In this document: positions 10,455 through 62,097 of the stretch, one piece after another | How positions within the stretch are numbered: position 1 is the stretch's first letter | Layout of the letters: every line of letters begins with the position of its first letter | Assembly: GCF_988242995.1 (NCBI RefSeq) | Contig: NZ_OZ547043.1 | DNA length: 64,000 nt | Strand: one strand, 5' to 3' | Translations under genes and position numbers: made by a program | Notes under the pieces: model-generated | What the model saw: only the letters and a program-made list of their open reading frames with translations | Databases searched by the model: none | Told to the model about the DNA's origin: nothing

Positions 10455-10850
<396 letters not shown>

Positions 10851-10891
10851 CACTTTTCGGTTTACTGTGGTAGAGTAACCGTGAAGACAAA

Positions 10892-11873: not shown

Positions 11874-11899
11874 AGCCCTCGCTTCGGTGAGGGCTTTAC
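11874..11899 (+). terminator. Putative terminator of the ssrS-ygfA transcript
   Basis: agccctc-gcttcggtg-agggct hairpin followed by ttaccgtt. Confidence 0.4.
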
Positions 11900-28525: not shown

Positions 28526-28760
28526 CTAGGATAAGCGAAACGTGGAATAAAAGGAATGATTGTCCAGTCAAAGAAGACAATTATCTGACTTACGTCACGT
28601 TTTCAGCCCCGCCCCTGTGGAATTTATTCCACTTTGCAGAATCACGAATAAGCGTAGCAAAATCTTTTCGTTGTGCCGTCACAAACCCTGACTTATATCA
28701 GAATATGACTGATGCAGCGTCGATATTATCCGCAATACGTCCGAGTTTCGGAGTACTCCA

Positions 28761-29192: not shown

Positions 29193-29214
29193 CTATTTTC
29201 AGAGAGGTTTTCTT

Positions 29215-29793
29215 ATGGCGCGTCGCCACTTTTCCAGTCAGGCGCTGGTGTTAATCGTTATATCTATCGCCATCAATATGATCGGCGGGCAACTGGCCAG
29301 CATGGTCAAATTACCTATATTTCTCGACTCCGTCGGCACACTTATTAGCGCGGTACTGCTTGGTCCGGTGATCGGGATGCTGACCGGCTTACTGACCAAT
29401 TTACTCTGGGGATTGCTGACCGACCCGATCGCCGCCGCATTTGCGCCCGTCGCGATGGTCATCGGCCTGGTCACCGGTTGGCTGGCGCGAGCGGGTTGGT
29501 TCCGCACCCTGCCAAAAGTCGTTGTTAGCGGCGTGATTATTACGCTTGCGGTAACGGTCGTCGCTGTACCGCTGCGTACTGCGCTGTTCGGCGGCGTGAC
29601 AGGAAGCGGAGCCGATTTGTTCGTTGCCTGGATGCACTCGATGGGGCAAAACCTGGTGGAGTCGGTGGCGATTACGGTGATAGGCGCGAACCTGGTCGAT
29701 AAAATTCTCACAGCGGTGATTGTCTGGCTTTTACTGCGTCAGCTGCCGATTCGCACCACGCGCCATTTCCCGGCAATGGCTGCCGTGCGCTAA
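29215..29793 (+). CDS. ECF transporter substrate-capture (S) component, 192 aa, substrate unknown
   Basis: AGAGAGG Shine-Dalgarno before the ATG; small polytopic protein with LPIFLDSVGTLISAVLLGPVIGMLTGLL, the loop motif typical of S components. Confidence 0.65.
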   Translation: MARRHFSSQALVLIVISIAINMIGGQLASMVKLPIFLDSVGTLISAVLLGPVIGMLTGLLTNLLWGLLTDPIAAAFAPVAMVIGLVTGWLARAGWFRTLPKVVVSGVIITLAVTVVAVPLRTALFGGVTGSGADLFVAWMHSMGQNLVESVAITVIGANLVDKILTAVIVWLLLRQLPIRTTRHFPAMAAVR

Positions 29794-30501
29794 ATGCATC
29801 CGTTTACATCCTTAACGCTGTGGGCGCTGGCGGCCTGCACCACGCTTATCCTGCCCACACAGACAATATTGCCAGTCTATAGCGCGGCGACCTTTTTCTG
29901 CCTTATTGCGCTAAAGGCCACGCGGCGGCGGGCAAAATATGTCGTCTGGCTGATGTTCTCGCTGGGGGCTGGACTGTGGTTGGTACACGGTGGCTGGCTG
30001 ACAGAATGGCTAAGCGGCACGCCACGCTCGCCAGAACGGTGGACGCATGCTATTACGCTCTGGTTGCGGATTCTGGCGATTGTTTCAACCTCGCAGTTGT
30101 GGATGCAGTACGTCCCAGTGCAACGTTTTATCCGCGCTTTGTTTGCTTCTCACCTGCCGCCGGGCGTCGCTTATCTGTTCGCCGGGCCGTTGTTGGTCGT
30201 TGAGCAGTTAAAACGGCAATTAGCGATTATTCATGAAGCGCAGCGCGCCCGCGGCGTGCCGCTGGATGAGGGCTGGTATCAGCGTTTACGTGCTATGCCC
30301 GCGCTAATTATTCCGCTAACACACAATGCGCTAAACGATCTGGCTATCCGTGGTGCGGCGCTGGATATGCGGGCATTTCGAATCAACAATAGGCGCACTA
30401 CGTTATGGGCACCAGCCGATAGCACCCTACAACGCGTAGCACGTTACACCATGATCTTGCTGATGCTGGCAGAATTCGGAGCGTGGATATGGTTACGTTA
30501 G
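29794..30501 (+). CDS. ECF transporter transmembrane (T) component, EcfT/CbiQ family, 235 aa
   Basis: ATG directly abuts the S-component stop (TAAATG); polytopic; ARG and IRG coupling-helix motifs. Confidence 0.65.
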   Translation: MHPFTSLTLWALAACTTLILPTQTILPVYSAATFFCLIALKATRRRAKYVVWLMFSLGAGLWLVHGGWLTEWLSGTPRSPERWTHAITLWLRILAIVSTSQLWMQYVPVQRFIRALFASHLPPGVAYLFAGPLLVVEQLKRQLAIIHEAQRARGVPLDEGWYQRLRAMPALIIPLTHNALNDLAIRGAALDMRAFRINNRRTTLWAPADSTLQRVARYTMILLMLAEFGAWIWLR

Positions 30502-31166
30502 AACAGTTCCGCTATTGCCCGACACACTCAACGCATCCTCCGTTCTGTTATGACTTTCACTATGTCAAACCGGGGATGGTCGCCATCTTTGGTGACAACG
30601 GCAGTGGCAAAAGTACGCTGGCGCAGCTGATGGCGGGCTGGTATCCGGACTTTCTACCAGGAGAGATAACCGGCACGGGGACGCTTCTCGGTACGCCCAT
30701 TGGGCGTCTCCCGCTTAATGAACAATCCGCCACCATCCAGCTCGTCCAGCAATCGCCCTATTTGCAGCTCTCCGGCTGTACCTTTAGCGTGGAAGAAGAA
30801 GTTGCCTTTGGGCCAGAAAATCTGTGTCTTGCTGAAAAAGAGATTATGGCGCGGATTGACGCCGCCCTGGCCCTGACCGAGTGCCAGCCGTTGCGCCATC
30901 GTCACCCGGCAACACTCTCCGGTGGAGAGACACAGCGCGTGGTCATCGCCTGCGCCATCGCGATGCAGCCAAAACTCTTAATTCTTGATGAAGCCTTTAG
31001 CCGCCTGACGCCGCAGGCCAGCGAAATGCTGTTGCAGCGCTTACAACACTGGGCGTCTGAACGTGGTTCGCTGATTATTCTTTTTGAACGTCATCGCACA
31101 CCTTTCCTGAACTACTGCCAGCAAGCGTGGCTATTGCAAAACGGAGCGCTCCAGCCACTATGTTAA
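30489..31166 (+). CDS. ECF transporter ATPase component A, ABC-type, about 225 aa
   Basis: Walker A GDNGSGKST, signature LSGGE, Walker B LLILDEA; start overlaps the T gene (a GTG at 30483 is an alternative start). Confidence 0.75.
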   Translation: MVTLEQFRYCPTHSTHPPFCYDFHYVKPGMVAIFGDNGSGKSTLAQLMAGWYPDFLPGEITGTGTLLGTPIGRLPLNEQSATIQLVQQSPYLQLSGCTFSVEEEVAFGPENLCLAEKEIMARIDAALALTECQPLRHRHPATLSGGETQRVVIACAIAMQPKLLILDEAFSRLTPQASEMLLQRLQHWASERGSLIILFERHRTPFLNYCQQAWLLQNGALQPLC

Positions 31167-31837
31167 CGTTAAATCAGATAACTTATCGCTGGCCTGGCGC
31201 GGCAACGGATTGTCTTTGCGACATTTCTCTGCAACTCAAACAAGGTGAATGGTTGGCGCTGACCGGCGACAATGGCGCGGGAAAATCGACGCTGTTACGA
31301 GTAATGGCAGGTCTTCTTACGCCCACAACCGGTACGGTTATGCTGCAACAACAGGCGATGAAAAACCTGAAAAACCGCCAACGTGCAGCAAAGATTGGCG
31401 TACTGTTTCAGGAAGCGGAAAACCAGCTTTTTCACAGCACCGTCGCCGACGAGATCGCATTTGGTTTGAAACTGCAAAAATGCCCGGCGGATGAAATCAC
31501 TCAACGTACCAATGCTGCCCTGCAATGCTGTCAGTTAGCAGACACTGCCAGCGCGCATCCGCTGGATCTGCATAGTGCGCAGCGACGGATGGTCGCCGTC
31601 GCCTGCCTGGAAGCACTCTCTCCGCCGCTATTGCTGCTGGACGAGCCGAGTCGGGATTTTGACGAAAATTGGTTGAGCGTGTTTGAACGCTGGCTGGAAA
31701 AGTGCCGCCAGCGAGGCACGAGCGTCGTAGCAATCAGTCATGACGCCGCATTTACCCGGCGTCATTTCTCTCGTGTGGTGCGACTGGAAGATGGTGTAAT
31801 CAGGAACGTTAATCCACCAGACGATATTCACCCGTAG
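31160..31837 (+). CDS. ECF transporter ATPase component A', ABC-type, 225 aa
   Basis: Walker A GDNGAGKST, Walker B LLLLDEP, H-loop SHD, signature degenerate (LHSAQ); ATG overlaps the component A stop (ATGTTAA). Confidence 0.75.
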   Translation: MLTLNQITYRWPGAATDCLCDISLQLKQGEWLALTGDNGAGKSTLLRVMAGLLTPTTGTVMLQQQAMKNLKNRQRAAKIGVLFQEAENQLFHSTVADEIAFGLKLQKCPADEITQRTNAALQCCQLADTASAHPLDLHSAQRRMVAVACLEALSPPLLLLDEPSRDFDENWLSVFERWLEKCRQRGTSVVAISHDAAFTRRHFSRVVRLEDGVIRNVNPPDDIHP

Positions 31838-32522
31838 CGGTCATCATTAAGGTCAAATTTGCAGGCAGACTCTCTTCCAGCACCCGGCGAACATTCGGCC
31901 CGTCGGTACGGTCATAAAAGTCTTCTGCGTCTGCCAGCGATAACCCTCCCGCCAGCTTTCGCCCCACCAGTCGTTCCCGCAACGCAGTAGCTGGCGCGTT
32001 GATAAAGATAGAGAAATCACAAAATTGCGCAAGCTGGCACCACTTCTCGTCGTCCAGCAACAACCAGTTTCCTTCGACGATGACGAGTGGTGCGGTAACG
32101 TGCAGCGCATCTTCAACAGGATCATGCTTTTGTCGATCGTACTGCGGCCACGTACAATCCCCTTCCACGACCTGGCGCAGATTTTCCGCCAGTTTCGCAA
32201 CGTCAAATGTCTCTGGTGCGCCTTTGAAGGGGCGCAATTGATGCGCATCCAGCCAGCTATTGTAATGGTGAAAACCATCCATCGGTAGCGTCTGAATAGC
32301 GGGCAGTTCCGGGTCTTGTTGCGCGATATATTCCCAGAAGGTGGTTAGGGTAGATTTACCCGTCCCCGGCGGAGCGCAAAGAAAAACCACCGTACGCCGC
32401 TGCGGATTTACCGTCTGTAAGGCCGCCAACATGTGCAGCAACGGTTTATGTACATTTTCAATCTCTTCGTTCTGGTACTGTGCCTGTATCTTCAGCCCAT
32501 TCACCGTTAATTCAATTTTCAC
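31809..32522 (-). CDS. yggC: P-loop nucleoside/pantothenate-kinase-like protein YggC, 237 aa
   Basis: Walker A APPGTGKST; matches YggC. Confidence 0.85.
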   Translation of the reverse strand: MKIELTVNGLKIQAQYQNEEIENVHKPLLHMLAALQTVNPQRRTVVFLCAPPGTGKSTLTTFWEYIAQQDPELPAIQTLPMDGFHHYNSWLDAHQLRPFKGAPETFDVAKLAENLRQVVEGDCTWPQYDRQKHDPVEDALHVTAPLVIVEGNWLLLDDEKWCQLAQFCDFSIFINAPATALRERLVGRKLAGGLSLADAEDFYDRTDGPNVRRVLEESLPANLTLMMTATGEYRLVD

Positions 32523-37163: not shown

Positions 37164-37540
37164 AAATTATCCTTATTTTATTTTTAGGGTACCGTCCGGC
37201 GGTAAAAATAAAATACTCGTGCGGTTTAATGAAAGCAATTGGGTACGCGAGAAGAAAAACCCCATGAGCCAAAATAATAAAACTTTAAATAACAACAACA
37301 TGAAATCAATAATTACAAAGTCAACTTTGTATTTGTTATGTTTATCACAAAATCAACATTTTGTTTGTTATTGTATTTTTGATGCATATCGCCATTTATT
37401 TATTGAATGTCCGAAAACATACTTTTTTTAATGCAATGTTTTTTCGCTATACCCCTTTATAGATTCTGAATTCTCACCTGTCGGCTATTTTCTCCTCACC
37501 TCATGTGACATATTCCCCACTTTACTCAAGGAAGATTCAT

Positions 37541-38449
37541 ATGAAAGCACCTGTTTCAATAACCTCATTTCGCCCACAAAAATCTATTGCTATCGTCATT
37601 GGCGTGCTTGCCGTGGTTGTGCTGCCATTTCTCTCGTATTACACCGTTAATGAAGGTGAACGCGGCATTTTGCTGCGCTACGGAAAAATCGTAAAAGTTG
37701 CCGAGCCGGGTCTGGGTTTTAAAATCCCTTTTATGGAAAGCGTGGAGAAAATTTCCACGCGTAATCAGGCTGTGGTTTATCAGGGATTACAGGCCTACAG
37801 CCGCGACCAGCAACCGGCACAAATGACAGTATCAGTCAGCTTCCACATTAAACCTTCAGAAGCTGGCGCAGTTTATACAACCTACAACACCATTGAATCT
37901 TTAAAAGAGCGTCTGATCGTCCGCCAGCTGCCAACCCAACTGGAGAACGTTTTCGGGCAATATACAGCCATCAGCGCGGTACAGGATCGTACAAAACTGG
38001 TTCAGGATCTGCAAAATGCAATGCGTAAAGCCGTTGTTGGCCCGGTGGTGATTGATGGTGTTCAGATTGAAAATATTGATTTTTCTGACGCTTATGAAAA
38101 ATCGATTGAAGATCGAATGAAAGCAGAAGTCGCCATTGCCACACGTAAGCAAAATCTGGAAACAGAGAAAATCCAGGCGCAAATAGCGGTAACTCAGGCC
38201 CAGGCAGAAGCAGACAGTAAACTGGCGGCAGCCAAAGCAGAAGCTGAGACTATTCGCGTAAGAGGCGCGGCAGAGGCTGAAACTATTCGTTTAAAAAGTG
38301 CGGCTGAAGCAGAAGCGATCCGCCTGCGCGGTGAAGCTCTGCGGGATAATCCCGGACTTGTTGCCCTCACCACTGCTGAGCGTTGGGACGGTAAGCTACC
38401 CGATACCATGATCCCCGGCAGTACAGTTCCGTTTATCTCTACTAAGTAA
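37541..38449 (+). CDS. SPFH/band-7 (prohibitin/HflC-like) membrane protein with an Ala/Glu-rich repeat tail, 302 aa
   Basis: AAGGAAG Shine-Dalgarno before the ATG; N-terminal TM helix; SPFH core (YTVNEGERGILLRYGK...); C-terminal AEAETIR-type repeats. Confidence 0.7.
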   Translation: MKAPVSITSFRPQKSIAIVIGVLAVVVLPFLSYYTVNEGERGILLRYGKIVKVAEPGLGFKIPFMESVEKISTRNQAVVYQGLQAYSRDQQPAQMTVSVSFHIKPSEAGAVYTTYNTIESLKERLIVRQLPTQLENVFGQYTAISAVQDRTKLVQDLQNAMRKAVVGPVVIDGVQIENIDFSDAYEKSIEDRMKAEVAIATRKQNLETEKIQAQIAVTQAQAEADSKLAAAKAEAETIRVRGAAEAETIRLKSAAEAEAIRLRGEALRDNPGLVALTTAERWDGKLPDTMIPGSTVPFISTK

Positions 38450-39155
38450 TAAATATCCTCCGGCATAGCCGGAGGTTTTTCAAATGCGCCTATAAGGCTC
38501 TCTTACCAGCCGCGCCCTAACAGGCGCACACGATCTGACATTTGCATCCAACTTCGTTACTTACGGCCCGTAAACGGGCTGCCCGGATAGGGAATCGATA
38601 ACTGCTCTCCCATTTTATCCTCTTCAAGCTGGTGCTTTATGTAATCCTGTATCTTCGCCGTGTTCTTACCCACTGTATCGACGTAGTACCCTCTGCACCA
38701 GAACTCCCTGTTCCTGTATTTGAATTTCAAATCACCAAACTGCTCGTAAAGCATCAGACTGCTTTTCCCTTTCAGATATCCCATAAACCCGGATACGCTC
38801 ATTTTGGGCGGGATCTCCACAAGCATATGGATATGATCTGCACAGCATTCAGCTTCCAGAATCCGTACGCTTTTCCACTCACACAGCTTTCTCAAAATAC
38901 TGCCTATTGCTCTACGCTTCTCTCTGTAGAACACCTGTCTTCGGTATTTTGGCGCAAAAACTATGTGATATTTACAGTTCCATCGGGTGTGCGCTAAGCT
39001 CTTTTCGTTCCCCATTGGGACCCCCTTTTGATTTCTTGTTTGACACTTGCAGTTGCCAGACCGCAAGGTGTTTTAACAAATCAAAAGGGGTTTTAATAAC
39101 TGGCTCAAAGCTGAAAGCTTTCCGGAACCCCCAGCCTAGCTGGGGGTTTTCTGTG
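38450..39155 (-). mobile_element. IS200 insertion sequence (IS200/IS605 family), about 0.7 kb, boundaries approximate
   Basis: Complete Y1/HUH transposase gene; GC-rich subterminal hairpins at both ends (cccccagcctagctggggg 39128-39146 and cctccggcatagccggagg 38456-38474). Confidence 0.6.
38557..39015 (-). CDS. tnpA: IS200 transposase TnpA (Y1 HUH transposase), 152 aa
   Basis: MGNEKSLAHTRWNCKYHIVFAPKYRRQVFY...HIHMLVEIPP... matches IS200 TnpA. Confidence 0.9.
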   Translation of the reverse strand: MGNEKSLAHTRWNCKYHIVFAPKYRRQVFYREKRRAIGSILRKLCEWKSVRILEAECCADHIHMLVEIPPKMSVSGFMGYLKGKSSLMLYEQFGDLKFKYRNREFWCRGYYVDTVGKNTAKIQDYIKHQLEEDKMGEQLSIPYPGSPFTGRK

Positions 39156-39158
39156 CAC

Positions 39159-39183
39159 AAAAAAAGGGCCGCTTTCGCGGCCC
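39159..39183 (-). terminator. Intrinsic terminator downstream of tktA
   Basis: gggccgcgaaagcggccc hairpin followed by a 7-T run on the minus strand. Confidence 0.75.
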
Positions 39184-39205
39184 TTCTCACAAAGCATCTT
39201 ACCGA

Positions 39206-41197
39206 TTACAGCAGTTCTTTTGCTTTCGCAACAACGTTGTCAACGGTGAAGCCGAACTCTTCAAACAGCAGTTCTGCCGGGGCAGACTCACCGAAGGTGG
39301 TCATGCCGACGATAGCACCGTTCAGGCCAACATACTTGTACCAGTAGTCAGCAATACCCGCTTCTACCGCAACGCGTGCAGTAACCGCTTTCGGCAGTAC
39401 GGATTCACGGTAAGCCGCATCCTGCTTGTCGAATGCATCGGTAGACGGCATGGAAACCACGCGCGCCTTCACGCCTTCGGCAGTCAGTTTTTCGTAGGCA
39501 GCGACAGCCAGTTCAACTTCAGAACCGGTAGCGATGAAGATCAGTTCCGGCTGGCCGGCACAGTCTTTCAGCACATAACCACCGCGCGCGATGTTTGCCA
39601 GCTGCTCTTCAGTACGCTCCTGCTGCGCCAGGTTCTGACGGGAGAGGATAAGCGCAGTCGGGCCGTCCTGACGTTCAACGCCGTATTTCCATGCCACTGC
39701 AGATTCAACCTGGTCACATGGACGCCATGTAGACATGTTCGGGGTCACGCGCAGAGAAGCAACCTGCTCTACCGGCTGGTGAGTCGGGCCATCTTCGCCC
39801 AGACCGATGGAGTCGTGGGTGTAAACCATCACCTGACGCTGTTTCATCAGCGCAGCCATACGTACGGCGTTACGTGCGTATTCCACGAACATCAGGAAGG
39901 TGGAGGTGTACGGCAGGAAGCCACCGTGCAGGGAGATACCGTTAGCAATCGCGGTCATACCGAACTCGCGAACACCGTAGTGGATGTAGTTACCCGCAGC
40001 ATCTTCGTTGATTGCTTTAGAACCAGACCACAGGGTCAGGTTAGACGGTGCCAGGTCAGCAGAGCCGCCGAGGAATTCCGGCAACAGCGGACCGAACGCT
40101 TCAATCGCATTCTGAGACGCTTTACGGCTGGCGATTTTCGCCGGGTTAGCCTGCAGTTTAGCGATGAACTCTTTCGCTTTAGCGTCGAAGTCAGACGGCA
40201 TTTCGCCTTTCATACGGCGGGTAAATTCAGCGGCTTCCTGCGGATAAGCTTTCGCGTAAGCTGCGAATTTCTCGTTCCATGCGGATTCTTTCGCCTGGCC
40301 TGCTTCTTTCGCATCCCACTGAGCATAGATTTCAGACGGGATTTCGAACGGTGCATATTTCCAGCCCAGCTGTTCGCGGGTCAGGGCGATTTCAGCGTCG
40401 CCCAGCGGCGCACCGTGGGAGTCGTGCGTACCGGCTTTGTTCGGTGAACCGAAACCGATGATGGTTTTGCACATCAGCAGGGACGGTTTGTCAGTCACTG
40501 CGCGCGCTTCTTCTACTGCGCGTTTGATGGATGCCGCGTCATGACCGTCGATGCCGCGAATAACGTGCCAGCCGTAAGCTTCGAAACGCATTGCGGTGTC
40601 GTCGGTGAACCAGCCTTCAACGTGACCATCGATAGAGATACCGTTGTCATCGTAGAACGCAATCAGTTTACCCAGCTTCAGCGTACCCGCCAGAGAGCAA
40701 ACTTCGTGGGAGATGCCTTCCATCATGCAGCCGTCGCCCATGAAGGCGTAGGTGTAGTGGTCGACGATGTCGTGGCCCGGACGGTTAAACTGCGCCGCCA
40801 GCGTTTTTTCTGCAATCGCCATACCGACTGCGTTGGCAATACCCTGACCCAGCGGACCAGTAGTGGTTTCCACACCAGCGGTGTAACCCACTTCCGGGTG
40901 ACCCGGAGTTTTAGAGTGCAGCTGACGGAAGTTTTTCAGTTCTTCCATCGGCAGATCGTAACCGGTGAGGTGCAGCAGGCTGTAGATCAGCATGGAGCCG
41001 TGGCCGTTGGACAGCACGAAGCGGTCACGGTCAGCCCAGGACGGATTCTGCGGGTTGTGTTTCAGGAAATCACGCCACAGGACTTCGGCAATGTCAGCCA
41101 TACCCATAGGGGCACCCGGGTGACCGGATTTGGCTTTCTGTACTGCGTCCATGCTCAGCGCACGAATAGCATTGGCAAGCTCTTTACGTGAGGACAT
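39206..41197 (-). CDS. tktA: Transketolase 1, 663 aa
   Basis: [41 protein letters not shown]... matches TktA. Confidence 0.95.
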
Positions 41198-42233: not shown

Positions 42234-42244
42234 GCATTTTATTA

Positions 42245-42280
42245 CGCCGGATTTGACGCACAACGCATCTTATCCGGCGC
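42245..42280. repeat. REP-like palindrome between convergent loiP and speB
   Basis: cgccggat...atccggcg arms. Confidence 0.4.
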
Positions 42281-43201
42281 TTACTCGCCCTTTTTCGCAG
42301 CCTGAATATACAGCATCTCCAGCGCCAGCGTCGCCGCAGCCAGAGCGGTGATTTCCGACTGATCGTATGCCGGAGCCACTTCCACTACGTCCATCCCAAC
42401 AATGTTGAGATCTTTCAGGCCGCGTACCAGTTTAATAGCGCGATCGGAGGTCAGGCCGCCAATTACTGGCGTACCGGTTCCCGGCGCGAAAGCAGGATCC
42501 AGGCAGTCGATATCAAAGGTCAGGTAAACCGGCATATCACCCACAATCTGTTTCACTTGGGCGATAACGTTATCCACGCTGCGATCGTTCACCTGGCAGG
42601 CGTCCAGCACGGTAAAGCCGTTGTCTTTATCGAACTCAGTACGAATACCAATCTGCACGGAATGATTCGGGTCGATCAGACCTTCTTTCGGCGCGGTATA
42701 GAACATGGTGCCGTGGTCAAATTCACAACCGTTCGCATAGGTGTCGGTGTGGGCGTCAAAGTGTACCAGCGCCATTTTGCCGAAATGCTTCGCATGAGCA
42801 CGCAGCAGCGGCAGCGTAACAAAGTGGTCACCACCGAAGGAGAGCATACGCTTACCGGCAGCCAGCAGCTTCTCGGCGTGCGCCTGCAGCTTCTCGCTCA
42901 TCTCACGGGCATCTCCGAAGGCATATACCAGATCGCCGCAGTCCACCACGTTCAGGCGCTCACGCATGTCGAAATTCCACGGGAAGCGGTTGTGTTCCCA
43001 GGCCAGATTCGTCGAAACCTGACGGATAGCAGCCGGACCGTGGCGTCCACCCGCACGACCAGAAGTGGCCATATCGAACGGCACGCCAGTAATCACCCAG
43101 TCAGCATCGCTGTCATATGGCTGGAAGTTCATCGGCAGGCGTAAAAAACCAAAGGCGTTGGAAACCAGTGAGTTATCGTATTGATGACCTAAGGTGCTCA
43201 T
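42281..43201 (-). CDS. speB: Agmatinase, 306 aa
   Basis: [43 protein letters not shown]... matches SpeB. Confidence 0.95.
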
Positions 43202-43336
43202 GGATGGACTCCTATTACAAAGTCGATATAAAAAAACCCTTCCGCGTCGTTAGGCCCGACGAGGAAGGGTTGGATTTGCGAAACACAAGTTTGCGCTAAT
43301 TATCGCCTTAAATGGACGAGGCATCAAGCGAGGTTG

Positions 43337-44068
43337 CTATTTCCGACACGGTGGCGGCGCATAGCCATTGTTGTCCGCCGGAAAGGCTTGTCCAGAGCAC
43401 GGCGGCAGCGCGTTTTGCGCCGGGCCTTGTAATTCAAAGGCGGCAAAGCCGATTACACCGGTATTACGCACATCGCCTTGCGCCGAATTGGCTGCGTAGG
43501 AATCAGCAACGTTGGCGAACTGAAAAGCCGCTTCGGTATGTTTATCTTTGCGGAATCCTTTAATCGCTAACGAATCTCCGGCATTCACAATATAGCCGTT
43601 GTTATTCAGCGAACCTTGCTTGCCGTTCAGCACATCCAGGCCATCAACCGTAGCAACGATCTCGTAGTTGGTATTACGACTGTAATTGCGGACATATAAT
43701 TGATAATTCATTCCTACTCTGGCATGGACAATATAGCGTGGTTCATTATTTGACGAATCATAAACCCGCGTAATAGGTAGAGAATTAAAATTACCATCGC
43801 GAATAGCATATTCAAGTTCGTTAATACGAATGCTATAAACGCGGTCGTAGCCCGAAGGAACAGTAGTCGAATAACTAATAACGATCATCTCTGCCGGATC
43901 GCGCCAGACTCGTTCAGCAGATACGCCCTGAACCGATGAGTGCACATCCCCACCCCAGGCGGTGCCGACATTGCCTGATGCACTGCTATTATACTGCGCA
44001 TTACTGGAACAACCGGCCAGCAGCACGGCTAATGCTATCAACGCGCTACGTACTTTCCATTTTTTCAT
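43337..44068 (-). CDS. Lipoprotein of unknown function, 243 aa
   Basis: GAGGGAA Shine-Dalgarno; signal peptide with lipobox MKKWKVRSALIALAVLLAGCSS; no family recognised. Confidence 0.6.
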   Translation of the reverse strand: MKKWKVRSALIALAVLLAGCSSNAQYNSSASGNVGTAWGGDVHSSVQGVSAERVWRDPAEMIVISYSTTVPSGYDRVYSIRINELEYAIRDGNFNSLPITRVYDSSNNEPRYIVHARVGMNYQLYVRNYSRNTNYEIVATVDGLDVLNGKQGSLNNNGYIVNAGDSLAIKGFRKDKHTEAAFQFANVADSYAANSAQGDVRNTGVIGFAAFELQGPAQNALPPCSGQAFPADNNGYAPPPCRK

Positions 44069-44149
44069 AACCGTTCCCTCTGCATTTAATTAATGCAGCG
44101 ATTGTAGGGGGATTATTTAATAAGAAAAGCAGCTAAATTATTTTTAAGA

Positions 44150-44196
44150 ATATATAAAAAGAAAGCGGGCCGATTTACGTAAATAAATCGACCCGC
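44150..44196 (-). terminator. Intrinsic terminator downstream of speA
   Basis: About 13-bp-arm hairpin gcgggtcgatttatttacgtaaatcggcccgc followed by a T-rich run on the minus strand. Confidence 0.6.
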
Positions 44197-44213
44197 CAGC
44201 GGAATAATCTTAA

Positions 44214-48161: not shown

Positions 48162-48190
48162 GGCCAGCCTCGCGCTGGCCTTTTTCTTTT
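48162..48190 (+). terminator. Intrinsic terminator downstream of metK
   Basis: ggccagc-ctcgc-gctggcc hairpin followed by tttttctttt. Confidence 0.8.
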
Positions 48191-48574
48191 ACCTCACCGC
48201 GGTGGATAGGCGTTCACGCCGCATCCGGCAAAAAGCTGCCCGCACAATAACATCATTCTTCCTGAACACGTTTTACCGCAAATTATCATCGCTACTGAAA
48301 CCGATTACACCAACCACACCAGAAAAAGATTTGTAATATTTTCATATTATTATTCAGTTTTCACGGTTGTTACATTTCTTTTCAGTAAAGTCTTAATTGC
48401 AGATAACAGCGTTTAATCTATGATGATATAACTCAATTATTTTCATGCACTTAAATCATAACTAAGATAAATGTTAGTGTAATCGATTACACTGATGTGA
48501 TTTGCTTCACATCTTTTTACGTCGTACTCACCTATCTTAATTCACAATAAAAAATAACCATATTGGAGGGCATC

Positions 48575-54254: not shown

Positions 54255-54382
54255 TTGCCGGATGCGGCGTGAACACCTTATCCAGCACACATCTGGCAGC
54301 GGCTATAGGTCTGATAAGACGCGTTAGCGTCGCATCAGACATTTATTGCCTTTGTAGGCCCGATAAGCTTGCGCATCGGGCA
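54255..54382. repeat. REP/BIME cluster (three REP units) between yqgF and yggR
   Basis: gccggatgcggcgtgaacaccttatccagc, aggtctgataagacgcgttagcgtcgcatcagac and gtaggcccgataagcttgcgcatcgggc. Confidence 0.8.
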
Positions 54383-54390
54383 TGGCAACG

Positions 54391-55371
54391 TCACAAACGC
54401 CCTTCCCCCACCCGGTGCTGATAACTCTGCTGAAACGTTATCATCCCCACCTGCTGCCCGGTTTGAATAACATGCGGTAACTGGTGGGTTTTCCCTTCGC
54501 GAATCAAATTCCCCACCGCGGGTGTGTTAATCAGCAATTCAAATAGCGCCACGCGTCCTTCCTGTTTATCCACTTCCAGCTTTTGTGACAGCACTGCCCG
54601 TAAACTACCTGCCAGTTGATTACGCACGGGGTCTTTTTCCTGCGCCGGAAATGAATCCACCAGTCGCTCAACTGCCTGCGCGGCACCACGCGTATGTAAT
54701 GTTGCCAGCACCAAATGCCCGGTTTCTGCCGCCGTCAGTGCCAGACGGATTGTCTCGCTGTCACGCAGCTCTCCGAGCAAAATCACATCAGGATCTTCCC
54801 GCAATGCGGCCCGCAATCCCGATGCGAACGTCATACAGTGCAAACCAATTTCCCGCTGCTGGATCAAACATCGCTGGCTGGCATAGAGATATTCAACAGG
54901 ATCTTCCAGCGTCAGAATATGCGCATCGGCATGTTGATTGAGATAGCCAACCATCGCCGCCAGCGTGGTAGATTTGCCACTCCCCGTCGCCCCCGTCACC
55001 AGAATCAGGCCATTCTCGCTCTTGAGTAATTCCGGCAATACCGTTGGTGCGCCAAGCTGTTCGAGCTGCGGGCAGTGCGAAGGTAACAGCCGTAACGCCA
55101 GCGAAATGCCATGCCGTTGCGCGAATGCGCTGCCACGCAATCGCTGGTTTTCCGCCAGCGACACGGCAAAATCCAGCTGACCATTCTCCAGCAATATTGC
55201 CCGCTGATCGTCATCCAGCCACTCCCGCAGTAGCTCTTCGACGTCCGGCGTATCAAACGGCGCAGCTTCCATTCTGCCGCGAATGCGCCATCGTGCGGGC
55301 CAGGCGCTGCACAGGTGTAGATCCGAGACGTTATGCTTTACACTAAGGGCCACAATTTCTTCCATATTCAT
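54391..55371 (-). CDS. yggR: PilT-like type IV pilus retraction ATPase homolog, 326 aa
   Basis: Walker A GATGSGKST; MNMEEIVALSVKHNVSDLHL... matches YggR. Confidence 0.9.
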   Translation of the reverse strand: MNMEEIVALSVKHNVSDLHLCSAWPARWRIRGRMEAAPFDTPDVEELLREWLDDDQRAILLENGQLDFAVSLAENQRLRGSAFAQRHGISLALRLLPSHCPQLEQLGAPTVLPELLKSENGLILVTGATGSGKSTTLAAMVGYLNQHADAHILTLEDPVEYLYASQRCLIQQREIGLHCMTFASGLRAALREDPDVILLGELRDSETIRLALTAAETGHLVLATLHTRGAAQAVERLVDSFPAQEKDPVRNQLAGSLRAVLSQKLEVDKQEGRVALFELLINTPAVGNLIREGKTHQLPHVIQTGQQVGMITFQQSYQHRVGEGRL

Positions 55372-55388
55372 ACTAAGATCCTCGGAAA

Positions 55389-56093
55389 ATGAACGATATT
55401 GCGCATAACCTGGCACAGGTCCGGGACAAAATCTCAGCGGCTGCAACGCGTTGCGGCCGTTCTCCAGAAGAAATTACGCTGCTTGCAGTCAGTAAAACAA
55501 AACCTGCGAGCGCCATCGCAGAAGCCATTGATGCCGGGCAGCGTCAATTTGGTGAAAACTACGTTCAGGAAGGGGTAGATAAAATTCGCCACTTTCAGGA
55601 ACTGGGCGTAACAGGATTAGAATGGCATTTTATTGGCCCGTTGCAGTCTAATAAAAGCCGCCTGGTGGCAGAGCATTTCGACTGGTGTCATACCATCGAC
55701 CGTTTGCGCATCGCTACCCGTCTCAACGACCAGCGCCCGGCAGAACTTCCCCCTCTTAACGTTCTGATTCAAATTAACATTAGTGATGAAAACAGTAAGT
55801 CCGGGATTCAACTGGCTGAACTGGACGAGCTGGCAGCTGCGGTCGCTGAACTACCGCGTTTACGTCTGCGCGGGTTGATGGCAATCCCTGCGCCTGAGTC
55901 AGAATATGTAAGGCAGTTTGAAGTTGCACGCCAAATGGCTGTAGCATTTGCCGGACTGAAAACGCGCTACCCGCATATCGACACGCTCTCTCTGGGAATG
56001 TCGGACGATATGGAAGCCGCCATTGCGGCAGGTAGCACGATGGTTCGTATCGGCACTGCAATTTTTGGTGCGCGTGATTACTCTAAAAAATAA
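55389..56093 (+). CDS. yggS: PLP-homeostasis protein (YggS/PLPBP family), 234 aa
   Basis: MNDIAHNLAQVRDKISAAATRCGRSPEEITLLAVSKTKP... matches YggS. Confidence 0.95.
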   Translation: MNDIAHNLAQVRDKISAAATRCGRSPEEITLLAVSKTKPASAIAEAIDAGQRQFGENYVQEGVDKIRHFQELGVTGLEWHFIGPLQSNKSRLVAEHFDWCHTIDRLRIATRLNDQRPAELPPLNVLIQINISDENSKSGIQLAELDELAAAVAELPRLRLRGLMAIPAPESEYVRQFEVARQMAVAFAGLKTRYPHIDTLSLGMSDDMEAAIAAGSTMVRIGTAIFGARDYSKK

Positions 56094-56110
56094 GGAATTA
56101 AAGGAACGCC

Positions 56111-56677
56111 ATGAATACGTTGACTTTCCTGCTTTCAACGGTCATTGAGCTGTATACCATGGTGCTGTTATTACGCATCTGGATGCAGTGGGCTCATTGT
56201 GATTTTTACAACCCCTTCTCACAGTTTGTAGTGAAGGTAACGCAGCCAATTATCGGGCCACTGCGCCGCGTTATTCCGGCAATGGGGCCAATTGACAGCG
56301 CCTCGCTGCTGGTTGCCTATATTCTCAGTTTTATCAAAGCCATCGTGCTGTTTAAAGTGGTGACCTTCCTGCCAATCATCTGGATTGCCGGTTTACTGAT
56401 TCTGCTGAAAACCATCGGCCTGCTGATTTTCTGGGTCCTGCTGGTGATGGCGATTATGAGCTGGGTAAGCCAGGGGCGTAGCCCGATTGAATACGTGCTG
56501 ATTCAGCTGGCCGATCCGCTGCTGCGCCCGATTCGCCGCCTGCTACCGGCAATGGGTGGGATTGATTTCTCGCCGATGATCCTCGTTCTGCTGCTGTATG
56601 TCATCAATATGGGTGTCGCAGAAGTATTACAGGCAACCGGAAATATGCTGCTGCCAGGGCTGTGGATGGCGTTATGA
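56111..56677 (+). CDS. yggT: YggT-family inner membrane protein, 188 aa
   Basis: [27 protein letters not shown]... matches YggT. Confidence 0.9.
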
Positions 56678-56964
56678 ATGCCGTAACAGTTAATGATGAC
56701 GGTCTGGTTTTACGGCTCTATATTCAGCCGAAAGCCAGCCGTGATTCTATTGTCGGTTTACATGGCGACGAAGTTAAAGTCGCCATTACCGCGCCGCCGG
56801 TTGACGGCCAGGCCAACAGTCATCTGGTGAAGTTTCTCGGTAAGCAATTCCGGGTTGCCAAAAGCCAGGTGGTGATTGAAAAAGGCGAACTTGGCCGCCA
56901 CAAACAAATTAAAATCATTAATCCGCAACAAATCCCGCCAGAAATCGCGGCGTTAATTAATTAG
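56674..56964 (+). CDS. yggU: UPF0235 (DUF167) protein YggU, 96 aa
   Basis: ATGA overlap with the yggT stop; ...[26 protein letters not shown]... Confidence 0.85.
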
Positions 56965-56971
56965 GTATCCT

Positions 56972-57565
56972 ATGCAAAAAGTTGTCCTCGCAACCGGCAA
57001 TGTCGGTAAAGTGCGTGAGCTGGCGTCGCTGCTTAGCGACTTCGGTCTTGATATCGTGGCCCAAACAGACCTCGGCGTTGATTCCGCTGAAGAAACCGGC
57101 CTGACCTTTATCGAAAACGCGATTCTGAAAGCGCGCCATGCGGCAAAAGTGACCGCTTTACCGGCAATTGCCGACGACTCTGGTCTGGCGGTAGATGTGC
57201 TTGGCGGCGCGCCGGGCATTTACTCCGCGCGTTATTCCGGTGAAGACGCGACCGATCAAAAGAATCTGCAAAAACTGCTGGAAACAATGAAAGACGTACC
57301 GGACGACCAACGTCAGGCGCGTTTCCACTGCGTGCTGGTATATCTGCGTCACGCGGAAGATCCCACTCCGCTGGTATGCCACGGTAGCTGGCCGGGCGTG
57401 ATTACTCGTGAACCAGCGGGCACTGGTGGCTTTGGTTATGATCCAATCTTCTTCGTACCTTCCGAAGGGAAAACCGCCGCCGAACTGACCCGCGAAGAAA
57501 AGAGCGCCATTTCCCACCGTGGTCAGGCGTTGAAACTGCTGCTGGACGCTTTACGTAATGGTTAA
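56972..57565 (+). CDS. rdgB: dITP/XTP pyrophosphatase, 197 aa
   Basis: [36 protein letters not shown]... matches RdgB. Confidence 0.95.
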
Positions 57566-58694
57566 ATTACCTCCGCTGAGTCTCTACATTCACATCCCGT
57601 GGTGCGTGCAGAAATGCCCGTACTGCGATTTCAACTCTCACGCGTTGAAAGGAGAAGTGCCGCACGACGATTATGTTCAGCATCTGCTTAACGATCTGGA
57701 CAACGATGTGGCTTACGCTCAGGGCCGTGAAGTAAAGACAATCTTTATTGGCGGTGGTACGCCGAGCCTGCTTTCCGGCCCGGCGATGCAAACGCTGCTG
57801 GACGGCGTGCGTGCGCGTTTGCCGCTGGCAGCGGATGCAGAAATTACTATGGAAGCGAACCCTGGCACGGTAGAAGCCGATCGCTTTGTCGATTATCAGC
57901 GTGCTGGTGTGAACCGCATCTCTATTGGTGTGCAGAGTTTTAGCGAAGAAAAGCTGAAACGACTTGGGCGTATTCATGGCCCGCAAGAAGCGAAACGCGC
58001 GGCGAAGCTGGCGAGCGGTTTAGGGTTACGTAGCTTTAACCTTGATTTGATGCATGGGCTGCCGGATCAATCACTGGAAGAGGCGCTTGGCGATCTACGC
58101 CAGGCCATTGAACTGAATCCGCCGCATCTTTCCTGGTATCAACTGACCATCGAACCCAATACGCTGTTTGGTTCGCGACCACCGGTGCTGCCGGACGATG
58201 ACGCGTTGTGGGATATATTCGAACAGGGGCATCAGTTATTAACCGCAGCGGGTTATCAGCAATATGAAACTTCCGCTTACGCCAAACCCGGTTATCAGTG
58301 CCAGCACAATCTCAACTACTGGCGCTTTGGTGACTACATCGGTATTGGCTGCGGCGCACACGGCAAAGTGACCTTCCCGGATGGGCGCATTCTGCGTACC
58401 ACCAAAACGCGTCATCCGCGTGGTTTTATGCAAGGAAGGTATCTGGAAAGCCAGCGTGATGTCGAAGCCACAGATAAGCCGTTTGAGTTCTTTATGAATC
58501 GCTTCCGTCTGCTGGAGGCCGCGCCGCGCGTGGAGTTTATTGCGTATACCGGGCTTTGCGAAGATGTGATTCGCCCACAGTTAGACGAGGCGATTGCCCA
58601 GGGTTATCTCACCGAATGTGCGGATTACTGGCAGATAACGGAACATGGGAAGCTGTTTTTAAATTCGCTGCTGGAGCTTTTTCTGGCTGAGTAA
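57558..58694 (+). CDS. hemW: Radical-SAM heme chaperone HemW, 378 aa
   Basis: CxxxCxxC radical SAM motif ([11 protein letters not shown]); overlaps the rdgB 3' end by 8 nt. Confidence 0.9.
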
Positions 58695-58701
58695 ACTTGT
58701 A

Positions 58702-58826
58702 TTGCCGGATGCGGCGTGAACGCCTTATCCAGCCGACATGTGGCAGCGGTTGTAGGTCTGATAAGACGCGCAAGCGTCGCATCAGACGTTGATTGCCGGA
58801 TGCGGGGTCAACGCCGCATCCTGCTA
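58702..58826. repeat. REP/BIME cluster between hemW and yggM
   Basis: Three REP units of gccggatgcggcgtgaacgccttatcc type. Confidence 0.8.
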
Positions 58827-58848
58827 CAAATCGTGCACTATATCAAAC

Positions 58849-59856
58849 TTACTTAATCACCCCATTGCGCCGCAGTTGTTCGGTATCTTTTTTCCAGCGT
58901 TCATTAGCCTGGTTGATATCGTCAATTTTCATCAAAATCGCGACTTTTTTACTGTTTATTTCTGAAACTTTCATCGTTAACGGATATTGCCCTTTTTCGA
59001 GCGTTACCCAGTCATCCTGCAATTTACGGCTAAGTTTTTGTGATTGCAGAAAAGTCTGTCGCCGTTGTTCGTTGATATCGAAATCTCGTTTCTGCTGAAT
59101 CGGCACTTCATAACACTCTTCACTCTGTTTATGACATGCCGCAATCGCCGGTTGATAAACCTCTTTGTCATATTTAACCGCGAACGCCTCGCTATCGTTC
59201 TGTTTATTAAACTCATCACGCTGTTGGTGAATTTTTTTAAAGGCGTCTTCGCGGGTCATTTGCTTACCGTTTGCATCTTTTCCCCAATATGCATCCGCTG
59301 CTTTCTGCGCCGCCACCATTTGCTTATCAAGCGCTTTCACTTCCTTTTCCAGCGCAGGAATCGAGTTCTTCTGGGTATTCAACGCAGATTCAAGCTGACT
59401 AAAGCGATAATTGAAATCTTCGCTATTCACGATCAGATATTTATTATTCGTTTTGATATCGTCGACCACCCGCCCACGATCGCTGGCTGCCGCCTGAAAA
59501 GAGTAAAAGTTCACCGACCAGCCAGACGCGGGCGTTCCTTTACTGGTTAACATCGCCGAGAATTTTACCGGTTTATCTTTCGTCCAGGTCTGTTCGAGCA
59601 GTTCGTAATCTGCCAACTGACCGACCCAGGTATAGAGATCGTCACTGGAAGAGACATCGCCTTCCGCTGACCAGGTGGCCTGATTACCCTTAGCATCAAG
59701 ATTTTTTAAGGTGATAGCATCAAGCTTGAGAATGCCGTGATACTGCTTTTTGAATTGATCTTTTAAGATATTTTCAGTTGGTGGTTCGCCATCTGCCCAG
59801 ACATTACCTGTCATCAACATAAGCAGCGCCGTGCCAACAATCCATTGCTTTTTCAC
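58849..59856 (-). CDS. yggM: Periplasmic DUF1202 protein YggM, 335 aa
   Basis: Signal peptide MKKQWIVGTALLMLMTGNVWA; matches YggM. Confidence 0.85.
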   Translation of the reverse strand: MKKQWIVGTALLMLMTGNVWADGEPPTENILKDQFKKQYHGILKLDAITLKNLDAKGNQATWSAEGDVSSSDDLYTWVGQLADYELLEQTWTKDKPVKFSAMLTSKGTPASGWSVNFYSFQAAASDRGRVVDDIKTNNKYLIVNSEDFNYRFSQLESALNTQKNSIPALEKEVKALDKQMVAAQKAADAYWGKDANGKQMTREDAFKKIHQQRDEFNKQNDSEAFAVKYDKEVYQPAIAACHKQSEECYEVPIQQKRDFDINEQRRQTFLQSQKLSRKLQDDWVTLEKGQYPLTMKVSEINSKKVAILMKIDDINQANERWKKDTEQLRRNGVIK

Positions 59857-59938
59857 CCGAAAACCCTCGCGCAGAATAATTTATTCCGGTGATTATCATT
59901 AGGGTAATTAAAATTGGCAATGGACGTGAGTCTGAAGT

Positions 59939-59965
59939 GAAAAAGCCCCGGCACGATACCGGGGC
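59939..59965 (-). terminator. Intrinsic terminator downstream of ansB
   Basis: gccccggtatcgtgccggggc hairpin followed by a 5-T run on the minus strand. Confidence 0.7.
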
Positions 59966-59972
59966 GAGGCGA

Positions 59973-61019
59973 TTAGTACTGATTGAAGATCTGCTGGATC
60001 TGCTGCGGATCTTTGGTTTGCGTCAGAGCCAGTTGCAGCAGAACGCGCGCTTTTTGCGGGTTCAGCGTGCCAGAGGCGACGAAGCCGTATTTCGCATCAT
60101 CCACTTCGGCATCCTGAGTGGTAGCGCCCGTCGGTACGCGGGAAGAACGCACGACTGCAGTACCGGTTTTCGCGGCGGTCGCCAGCGTGTCGAACACAGA
60201 TTTATACAGGTTGCCGTTACCCACACCAGCGCTAACGATGCCATCATAGCCCGCATCTACCAGTGCTTTAGCCGGAAGATCGGATGCGTTAGCGTAGTTA
60301 TAAACAATGCCGACTTTCGGCAGTTCATTCAGCTTAGAGACATCGAATGGCGTGTCGCTGGTATGCTTACGTGCCGGGGTACGCTGGTAGTCAATCTTAC
60401 CGTTGTGAATGTAACCCAGAGGACCGTAGTTAACAGACTTGAAGGTCGCTACGTCGGTGGTGTTGGTTTTGGTGACGTCACGGCCATCAAGCACGGTGTC
60501 ATTCATCACTACCAGCACGCCACGGTTGGCGGAGGCTTTATCAGCTGCGGTCACTACCGCGTTATACAGGTTGAATGGACCGTCTGCGCTCATAGACGTG
60601 GACGGACGCATTGCGCCGACCATCACCACCGGTTTGTCGCATTTCACCGTCAGGTCGAGGAAGTAAGCAGTTTCTTCCATCGTGTCGGTACCGTGGGTAA
60701 TGACGAAGCCGTCGGTCTTATCGCAGTCGGTGTTAATTTTTTTCGCCAGTGTCAGCCAGACATTATCGTTCATGTCCTGGGAGCCGATATTCACTACCTG
60801 CTCGCCTTTAACGTTCGCAATGTCTTTTAGTTGCGGCACCGCATTAACCAGATTTTCTACGCCAACTTTACCCGCTGTGTAGTTAGATTTGGTTGCGGAG
60901 TCACCACCACCGGCAATGGTCCCGCCGGTTGCTAAAATGGTGATATTGGGTAATGCCAATGCTGCACCACTAAAACCCATAACCAGTGCGGCAAGTGCCG
61001 TCTTTTTGAAAAACTCCAT
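59973..61019 (-). CDS. ansB: Periplasmic L-asparaginase II, 348 aa
   Basis: MEFFKKTALAALVMGFSGAALALPNITILATGGTIAGGGDSA... matches AnsB. Confidence 0.97.
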   Translation of the reverse strand: MEFFKKTALAALVMGFSGAALALPNITILATGGTIAGGGDSATKSNYTAGKVGVENLVNAVPQLKDIANVKGEQVVNIGSQDMNDNVWLTLAKKINTDCDKTDGFVITHGTDTMEETAYFLDLTVKCDKPVVMVGAMRPSTSMSADGPFNLYNAVVTAADKASANRGVLVVMNDTVLDGRDVTKTNTTDVATFKSVNYGPLGYIHNGKIDYQRTPARKHTSDTPFDVSKLNELPKVGIVYNYANASDLPAKALVDAGYDGIVSAGVGNGNLYKSVFDTLATAAKTGTAVVRSSRVPTGATTQDAEVDDAKYGFVASGTLNPQKARVLLQLALTQTKDPQQIQQIFNQY

Positions 61020-61194
61020 TTCATTCCTCCAGTTACGTGAACGCTACGCATTATCCCTTAGCTCTGTATGGGAAATTTGACGTTAAACAATTTACAACGT
61101 GAATATATTTTGGAGATCTACAAAGTTAGAGGCAGGTAACAAAACGAAGAATTAAACGGCATAAAAAAGTATTATGCCGTCTTAAAATAGAGGA

Positions 61195-61914
61195 TTATTT
61201 TAAATTCCCGACCAGGGCTTTGCGGCTATCTTCCAGAGTCACAACGCGGCTACAAACATCTTTGCCAAACTGCTGGAAATCTTTTTCCTGCTTTTTCCAC
61301 TCGGTTTGGATTGAGGATTGCAGCCCCCCCAGGCTTCCCAGCACATTCTGTAATGGGTTACCGCCGCTTTTCAGCACCGCTTTCGCGCCCATTTCATTAA
61401 TGCTGTCCTGTAAAATTCCACCCATTGCCTGATTCACTAATTGCTGGCCTTCGGCGCGAACCTGATCAATGGCTTTATAGTGAAACGTCAGGCCATCGCT
61501 GCGCGTTTCAATAATGCGGTTCATCTGCTCTTTCAGCTGCGCATCAAGTTTGGTCAGACGGCTGCGCATTTTGCTGCTTTCGCCCATCTCCTGAACGATA
61601 ATTTTATCCAGAGCAATACGGGCTTTCTCGACGCGGCTTTTCGCGCCTTCATCAATCCACGGCAGCGTGCTGCGTAGTTCAGCCTGATAATCCTTCGCCT
61701 GCTCGCGCTGGGCAGCATTCAGGGAATATTGCTTACCGTTATACATCACGTTGCCGTCTGGCGTGATCACCAGATTGCCGTTTTCGCCCTTCACCTGCAC
61801 GGTTTGCGGGCTGACAATCACATCGTCACGCGGCGTGACGCTGCACTGGTAGTCGGCGTGAGCGGTCATTGCCGTCACTGAAAGTGCTGCCGCCAGCAGC
61901 ATTTTGCGCATCAT
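61195..61914 (-). CDS. yggN: Periplasmic DUF2884 protein YggN, 239 aa
   Basis: Signal peptide MMRKMLLAAALSVTAMTAHA; matches YggN. Confidence 0.85.
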   Translation of the reverse strand: MMRKMLLAAALSVTAMTAHADYQCSVTPRDDVIVSPQTVQVKGENGNLVITPDGNVMYNGKQYSLNAAQREQAKDYQAELRSTLPWIDEGAKSRVEKARIALDKIIVQEMGESSKMRSRLTKLDAQLKEQMNRIIETRSDGLTFHYKAIDQVRAEGQQLVNQAMGGILQDSINEMGAKAVLKSGGNPLQNVLGSLGGLQSSIQTEWKKQEKDFQQFGKDVCSRVVTLEDSRKALVGNLK

Positions 61915-61928
61915 AGTCTTCCCTCAAG

Positions 61929-61955
61929 AAAAAATCAGGCCAGCATTTGCTGGCC
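61929..61955 (-). terminator. Intrinsic terminator of the trmB-yggL transcript
   Basis: ggccagcaaatgctggcc hairpin followed by tgattttttc on the minus strand. Confidence 0.6.
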
Positions 61956-61985
61956 CCAGATTGATAACAAAGTACGCGTTTTCCA

Positions 61986-62066
61986 TGCCGGATGCGGCGT
62001 AAACACCTTATCCCGCCTACTCGATCGTGCATCTTTCCAGGCCTGATAAGCGTAGCGCATCAGGCA
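61986..62066. repeat. REP element(s) downstream of yggL
   Basis: gccggatgcggcgtaaacaccttatcc ... gcctgataagcgtagcgcatcaggc. Confidence 0.75.
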
Positions 62067-62097
62067 GTTTTGCATTTGTCATCGCCCGTATGCTTTC

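Follow-up and report, generated by a model that had tools for sequence, protein, structure and literature searches.

Repetitive extragenic palindromic (REP) units and the bacterial interspersed mosaic elements (BIMEs) that they form have been catalogued in Escherichia coli K-12 for decades. In the published definitions (Ton-Hoang et al. 2012, PMC3333891), a BIME-2 consists of inverse Y and Z2 units with a short S linker, and a BIME-1 (RIP/RIB) consists of a Y unit, an L linker with an integration host factor (IHF) site, and a Z1 unit. Further comparisons come from naRNA4, whose model (Rfam RF02564) is the Y-l-Z2 unit of REP325 (PMC4550694); from CssrE, an ~140-nt RNA of the yggN/yggL spacer of Shigella flexneri 301 detected by Northern blot, tiling array, and reverse-transcription PCR (Peng et al. 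2011, PMC3071730 Table 1); and from the REPIN-RAYT systems of Pseudomonas and the E. coli REPtron (tnpA-REP, yafM), in which inverted REP pairs are mobilised (RAYT, REP-associated tyrosine transposase). Here we analyse three clusters of REP units in a 64-kb stretch of DNA (64,000 nt of contig NZ_OZ547043.1, hereafter the window), located between ruvX (yqgF) and yggR (cluster 1), between hemW and yggM (cluster 2), and between yggL and yggN (cluster 3). We conclude, with a probability of roughly 0.96, that the three clusters belong, as resident copies organised into BIMEs, to the E. coli REP (palindromic unit) family. They are real and already known, and a preliminary description of this DNA placed and named them correctly.

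Direct reading, together with a scan using the two conserved REP arms, gave eight REP units in total at the three junctions where the preliminary description had reported clusters of two to three units, and every one of these units falls between annotated genes. The flanking genes named there (yqgF, hemW, and yggL) correspond to the gene pairs given above. The units were also said to alternate in orientation, which holds for clusters 2 and 3 and fails for cluster 1, which reads + − − (with '+' denoting a unit that reads GCC...CTAC on the + strand). The units are 28–36 nt long, and each folds alone to an imperfect hairpin (−11.2 to −20 kcal/mol, z −2.0 to −6.3). A characteristic 2x2 internal mismatch is present in seven of the eight hairpins, the exception being the third unit of cluster 2, which has a perfect stem.

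A REP consensus search across the window, which had been proposed as a check, aligned the units to the Y, Z1, and Z2 types, with the third unit of cluster 2 atypical. The Y, Z1, and Z2 consensus strings were validated against K-12, whose chromosome has canonical units at other places that match them with 0 mismatches, and against Rfam naRNA4, an independently curated model of the Y-l-Z2 BIME-2 unit that the Y and Z2 hairpins match. The 12-base core GATGCG-N4-13-CTTATC had seven exact matches in the window compared to 0.07 expected, a number reached by 0 of 100 shuffles. All seven matches fall inside the three clusters, and seven of the eight units hold the exact core (GATGCG..CTTATC). When mismatches were allowed in the two-arm scan, the window gave eight matches (seven in the clusters plus a lone unit at 923–951), compared to 0–1 across 30 dinucleotide shuffles. 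Per E. coli genome, the cluster 2 query had dispersed copies at a median of 15 places and the cluster 3 query at a median of 10.

Clusters 1 and 2 resemble BIME-2. Each has a Y unit (+), a 14-nt S-type linker, and a Z2 unit (−) placed head to head; both are extragenic and multicopy, and their copy number differs between strains, as PMC3333891 describes for BIME-2. They differ from it in holding one BIME-2 unit per locus in this strain, in having several units that lack GTAG, and, for cluster 1, in carrying an extra Z1-like unit oriented like Z2. This last unit shares the orientation of Z2 because the Y unit that stood between them was nearly deleted: the + − − order of cluster 1 results from decay of the intervening Y to ATTGCC (54345–54350), and a partial Y is kept at the site of this remnant in Ec-RL2-1X and Escherichia sp. 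E1V33 (TTGCCGGGTGCTGCG / TTGCCAGATACGGCGTGAATG). Judged from their sequence, clusters 1 and 2 each combine a BIME-2 core with one further unit, which in cluster 1 is the short Z1-like unit that follows the nearly deleted Y and in cluster 2 is the older single hairpin of the junction.

Cluster 3 resembles BIME-1 in having one Y and one Z1 unit in a single, strain-stable copy and in its outer flanks (..TTTnCAT directly followed by GCCGGATG, and CATCAGGCAnTTTTGC), which are similar to the flanks of the canonical BIME-1 that K-12 has at mscS/fbaA. The 16-nt linker of cluster 3, however, is unrelated to the 35-nt L linker of the K-12 mscS/fbaA element, and the IHF consensus WATCAANNNNTTR, with three matches in the window and 0 in the three clusters, shows no excess over chance. 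The short linker and the missing IHF consensus thus make cluster 3 an atypical BIME by the published scheme.

In vitro, TnpA-REP needs GTAG and a non-complementary stem pair, beside an inverted REP or a linker with a cleavage site between C and T (PMC3333891). The GTAG/CTAC foot tetranucleotide is kept in four of the eight units (the third unit of cluster 1, the Z2 and third units of cluster 2, and the Y unit of cluster 3), and GTAG is altered in the other four to GTGT, ATAG, GTCG, or CCAG. One unit per cluster combines GTAG with the stem mismatch (54354–54381, 58752–58787, and 61987–62020). With one competent-looking unit each, the clusters are comparable to the inverted REP pairs of the REPIN-RAYT and REPtron systems, and they differ from those systems in having no RAYT gene beside them or in the window. 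Several observations weigh against our reading of the clusters: five of the eight units lack GTAG or the stem mismatch, and most are probably dead as transposase substrates; the 64-kb window holds no RAYT gene, its sole Y1 transposase being that of the insertion sequence IS200; and BIME-1 membership was rejected for cluster 3, which has neither an L linker nor an IHF consensus. The units, linkers, and associated RNA features are collected in Table 1.

Table 1. Features of the three REP clusters, with RNA-model matches and the hairpin upstream of yggN.
Feature	Position	Strand	Remarks
Cluster 1 Y-type REP	54257–54290	+	degenerate tail CACAC for CCTAC, opposite-strand GTAG lost; −11.2 kcal/mol
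Cluster 1 S-type linker, 14 nt, ATCTGGCAGCGGCT	54291–54304	.	joins Y and Z2 heads; near-identical linker in cluster 2
Cluster 1 Z2-type REP	54305–54340	−	GTAG changed to ATAG; hairpin −19.8 kcal/mol, z −6.3
ATTGCC, remnant of third Y unit	54345–54350	+	partial Y at same place in Ec-RL2-1X and Escherichia sp. E1V33
Cluster 1 short Z1-like REP, GCCCGATGCGCAAGCTTATCGGGCCTAC	54354–54381	−	GTAG and stem mismatch both kept
Cluster 2 Y-type REP	58704–58737	+	tail CCGAC
Cluster 2 S-type linker, 14 nt, ATGTGGCAGCGGTT	58738–58751	.	direct reading
Cluster 2 Z2-type REP	58752–58787	−	GTAG and stem mismatch kept; −20.0 kcal/mol
Cluster 2 atypical Y-like hairpin	58795–58827	+	perfect stem without AA/GC mismatch; CTAC tail
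naRNA4 full-length match (Rfam RF02564; Y hairpin, linker, Z2 hairpin)	58755–58825	−	60.9 bits compared to gathering score of 59.5
Cluster 3 Y-type REP	61987–62020	+	CTAC/GTAG and stem mismatch kept
Cluster 3 linker, 16 nt, TCGATCGTGCATCTTT	62021–62036	.	not the 35-nt L linker; no IHF consensus
Cluster 3 Z1-type REP	62037–62065	−	CCAG in place of GTAG
Intrinsic-terminator-like hairpin GGGCCAGCAAATGCTGGCCT and T-run	61927–61956	−	yggN Shine-Dalgarno and ATG directly after
Putative CssrE equivalent: Z1 REP, linker, Y REP, spacer, terminator	61929–62068	−	coordinates inferred; 5′ end back-calculated from Northern size

Copy number was compared with that of other strains, as had also been proposed, and clusters 1 and 2 proved variable and cluster 3 constant. 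At cluster 1, a 401-bp query spans 332–430 bp in other strains, and the arrangements range from a lone Z1 with a Y fragment (ST2747) and Y with a Z1-like unit (MS15236) to Y, Z2, and Z1. Sampled E. coli thus have one to three recognisable units at this junction, and Escherichia sp. E1V33 has a partial fourth, with Y, Z2, partial Y, and Z1 in proper alternation. Cluster 2 forms a copy series, with 0 BIME-2 units and a lone perfect hairpin (GCCGGATGCGGCGTGTACGCAACATCCGGCTAC) in E2348/69 and AF20, one BIME-2 unit in the window and K-12, and two units (+87 bp) in OkiPb01692. In strains 2003-3014 and MS1685, the hemW/yggM junction has no REP and holds a three-gene TRAP transporter operon (7803–11007 of the locus retrieved from 2003-3014); this operon in place of the BIME in some E. 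coli makes the junction a strain-specific insertion point. The length of cluster 3 did not differ among the sampled genomes, and at least 80% of its query was matched in 5,348 of 5,426 genomes. This makes clusters 1 and 2 strain-variable markers and cluster 3 an insertion that is fixed among the sampled Escherichia species.

To place the clusters among related species, species-representative genomes were searched in a single scan for a degenerate YggL C-terminal pattern, which gave 120 loci. REP blocks are present at these junctions in E. albertii, E. whittamii, and Escherichia sp. E1V33, and absent at the same junctions in Citrobacter, Salmonella, Klebsiella, Enterobacter, and Kluyvera. The ruvX/yggR junction of Citrobacter, for example, is a spacer of 47–55 nt with no REP. 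The yggL–yggN spacer is ~50–60 nt in Citrobacter, Salmonella, Klebsiella/Raoultella, Enterobacter, Kluyvera, and others, and this short form consists of a hairpin (e.g. GGGCCGGCAAATGCCGGCCC) and GATTTGTCTT, with the yggN Shine-Dalgarno sequence following directly. An ~132-bp block with Z1 and Y lies just upstream of the yggN hairpin in E. coli, E. albertii, E. whittamii, and Escherichia sp. E1V33, and the terminator-like hairpin itself is conserved across Enterobacterales, from Escherichia to Erwinia. On this distribution, the hairpin is older than the BIME of cluster 3, and cluster 3 is read as an Escherichia-lineage insertion into the yggL 3′ untranslated region (UTR) and not as what defines the operon end. 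E. albertii, Escherichia sp. E1V33, and E. coli E2348/69 have a counterpart of the third cluster 2 hairpin as the sole element of the junction; by the same kind of comparison, the ancestral Escherichia state of cluster 2 is a single hairpin in a 64-nt spacer. Separately, the cluster 3 site downstream of yggL in Escherichia sp. MOD1-EC7003 has been amplified to at least eight REP units that repeat every ~100 bp and are of variant types (GGGTGGATAAGGCG..CCACC and, at 37 nt, GCCGGATGCGGCGCTTGCCGCGTCTTATCCGGCCTAC).

Among other explanations, the one that survives best, although we regard it as unlikely, is that the clusters are primarily small-RNA genes, with cluster 3 the counterpart of CssrE, the minus strand of cluster 2 an naRNA4-like HU-binding nucleoid RNA, and the REP sequence their functional body. 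CssrE comes from the same yggN/yggL spacer and strand as cluster 3; it lies on the gene strand with its 3′ end at the terminator (PMC3071730), and its ~140 nt span exactly the Z1, Y, and terminator of the window, the size fitting ~62068 to 61929. It is known from S. flexneri 301 (3,043,743–3,043,882) and not from this strain, however, and the putative correspondence is one of spacer, strand, and size. The minus strand of cluster 2, which is the sense direction of the yggM 3′ UTR, matches the whole 77-position naRNA4 model and passes its gathering score, and REP325-derived naRNA4 condenses DNA together with HU (PMC4550694). This pass is marginal, and because the model is the Y-l-Z2 BIME-2 unit itself, so that any Y/Z2 pair scores, the match mainly restates the BIME-2 identity of cluster 2. 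Compared to the model, cluster 2 has a linker 6 nt shorter and a Y hairpin without the bulge, and it is a single unit where REP325 has six in tandem, an HU or nucleoid role being putative here. Cluster 3 scores 30.4 bits against naRNA4, below threshold, and all units other than the cluster 2 match score 27.8–42.3 bits, under the gathering threshold. No promoter-like site precedes either element, so a 3′-UTR decay or processing product is more likely; for cluster 3, CssrE would accordingly be a stable 3′-UTR fragment bounded by the REP and terminator hairpins. A small-RNA reading is also compatible with REP/BIME identity and not opposed to it, and the CssrE and naRNA4 labels are best taken here as denoting REP-derived 3′-UTR RNAs. 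Slightly more doubtful still is the idea that the Escherichia-specific Y/Z1 block is more than a passive repeat and, by its insertion between the yggL stop codon and an ancient terminator, made a new stable ~140-nt 3′-UTR-derived RNA with a REP-pair body; with the naRNA4-like unit of cluster 2, this RNA would act in trans (e.g. on REP cruciforms together with HU) or adjust read-through between yggL and yggN. Apart from the Shigella CssrE table, a literature search found no locus-specific REP study for these gene names.

We consider it very improbable that the clusters are ordinary bidirectional Rho-independent terminators of convergent genes that are merely REP-like. The units do lie at gene ends and form GC-rich stem-loops, and the hemW/yggM junction of Citrobacter sp. 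Awk 4 holds one plain hairpin (GGATGCGCCTGTGGGCGCATCC), but no T-run follows any of the eight units, a terminator scan found no hairpin with a T-run inside clusters 1 and 2, and the cluster sequences recur at 10–15 places per genome and match Y, Z1, and Z2. The only true terminator-like site (61956–61927) is separate from the REP units.

As REP/BIME elements, all three clusters lie in transcribed 3′ regions. The preliminary description took them to mark operon ends, which fits clusters 1 and 2, located between convergent genes with no intrinsic terminator, and does not fit cluster 3, which lies inside the yggL 3′ UTR, between the yggL stop codon and the conserved terminator-like hairpin. The helix of this hairpin, upstream of yggN, is kept by compensatory changes: 10 cells are changed on both sides compared to 2.8 in shuffles, and 0 of 500 shuffles reach the observed value. 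This covariation is a modest count over the named helix, and RNAalifold gave no consensus owing to alignment shifts. The hairpin and its T-rich run stand directly against the yggN Shine-Dalgarno sequence and therefore leave no room for a yggN promoter, and this arrangement suggests that yggN is transcribed by read-through from yggL, with the hairpin serving as a partial terminator or attenuator.

The preliminary description also called the clusters sites of mRNA stabilisation and RAYT activity. Both are properties of the repeat family, from which the workings proposed below are taken, and they are putative at these loci. In RNA, the GC-rich REP hairpins would block 3′-to-5′ exonucleases and thereby stabilise the upstream message. 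Because clusters 1 and 2 contain no hairpin with a T-run, their REP hairpins are the only strong structures at those 3′ ends, and lone strong 3′-end hairpins are the classical setting for protection from 3′ exonucleases. A REP stem located less than 16 nt after a stop codon is reported to lower the translation of the gene that ends there (Liang, Rudd and Deutscher 2015, as quoted in PMC12306157). The distance from stop to stem is 9 nt both for hemW (stop 58692–58694, stem from 58704) and for yggR (minus strand; stop 54393–54391, stem from 54381), placing these two genes inside the 16-nt limit, with ruvX (49 nt), yggL (32 nt), and yggM (~21 nt) outside it. A hairpin 9 nt past the hemW and yggR stop codons could stall the terminating ribosome and lower protein output, and both genes are added to those with a stop codon within reach of a REP hairpin. 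At the level of DNA, gyrase cleavage is enriched in BIME-2, mostly at y units (PMC6379681), and the Y/Z2 pairs of clusters 1 and 2 would be candidate gyrase sites. The units that combine GTAG with the stem mismatch could serve as binding sites of a RAYT encoded elsewhere in the genome, and cleavage or recombination by such a transposase would account for the strain differences in copy number at clusters 1 and 2. The copy changes at these two clusters would equally result if the repeats underwent homologous recombination or replication slippage with one another.

Finally, the idea that the clusters are palindromes arisen by chance, or that they are left over from a different mobile element (a miniature inverted-repeat transposable element or IS200/IS605 ends) can be dismissed, for although the window does contain an IS200 copy with a RAYT-related Y1 transposase, chance is opposed by the seven core matches where 0.07 were expected, no terminal inverted repeats or IS ends lie beside the clusters, the IS200 is ~15 kb off, and the cluster spacers are identical to those of K-12, which has no such IS200 copy.

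The chromosomal setting is that of E. coli. An 8.8-kb stretch around the clusters was matched over at least 80% of its length in 5,259 of 5,426 complete E. coli genomes (best 99.9%), a match that identifies the window as E. coli chromosome. The gene order, gshB-yqgE-ruvX(yqgF) > < yggR, yggS-yggT-yggU-rdgB-hemW > < yggM < ansB < yggN < yggL < trmB, is the same in K-12 MG1655. The ruvX/yqgF–yggR, hemW–yggM, and yggL–yggN spacers (183, 154, and 183 bp) equal those of MG1655 in length and have 0 mismatches to them. In K-12 coordinates, clusters 1, 2, and 3 correspond to 3,093,966–3,094,091, 3,098,413–3,098,537, and 3,101,696–3,101,775. The surrounding 15.7 kb carries 94 differences from MG1655, and the strain is therefore not K-12. 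The region can be annotated confidently, and the finding is correct but ordinary.

Other REP sites in the window differ from the three clusters or from K-12. A truncated Y-type REP (GCCGGATGCGGCGTGAACGCCTATCCACC...) at 48196–48229 (−) lies directly after the metK terminator (48163–48190). It brings the REP sites in the 3′ third of the window to four and is absent from the preliminary description. The lone Z1-type REP at 923–951 starts 11 nt past the bglA stop codon (909–911) and is contained in a 119-bp segment (912–1030) that stands in place of 1,020 bp of K-12 including ygfF. Two K-12 elements are missing: the BIME-1 between mscS and fbaA (Y, 35-nt L linker, Z1; K-12 3,070,003–3,070,100), at ~24836 of the window, and a three-unit BIME between loiP and speB (K-12 ~3,082,700–3,082,840), where window positions 42234–42282 have only a 41-nt REP-like palindrome.

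The IS200 copy (38480–39210; tnpA at 38557–39066, −; Rfam STnc490 at 39025–39148, −) lies between cmtB and tktA in a 2-kb segment (37242–39204) that is absent from K-12 and also has an SPFH/Band-7 gene (37505–38449). We rejected its tnpA as a RAYT gene, since the product scores 147 bits on transpos_IS200 and 31.8 bits on REP_Tyr_transpos (cut-off 80). Two further insertions relative to K-12 were found. The first, of 3.3 kb (28599–31877) between epd and yggC, encodes a PCC-domain protein and an ECF-type transporter composed of an S component, a CbiQ-like T component, and two ABC ATPases. The second, of 935 bp (43279–44213) between speB and speA, holds a 243-aa open reading frame (43337–44068, −) with no Pfam or NCBIfam match. 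Rfam places 6S RNA (ssrS) at 10892–11075 and SibC at 11724–11874, as expected.

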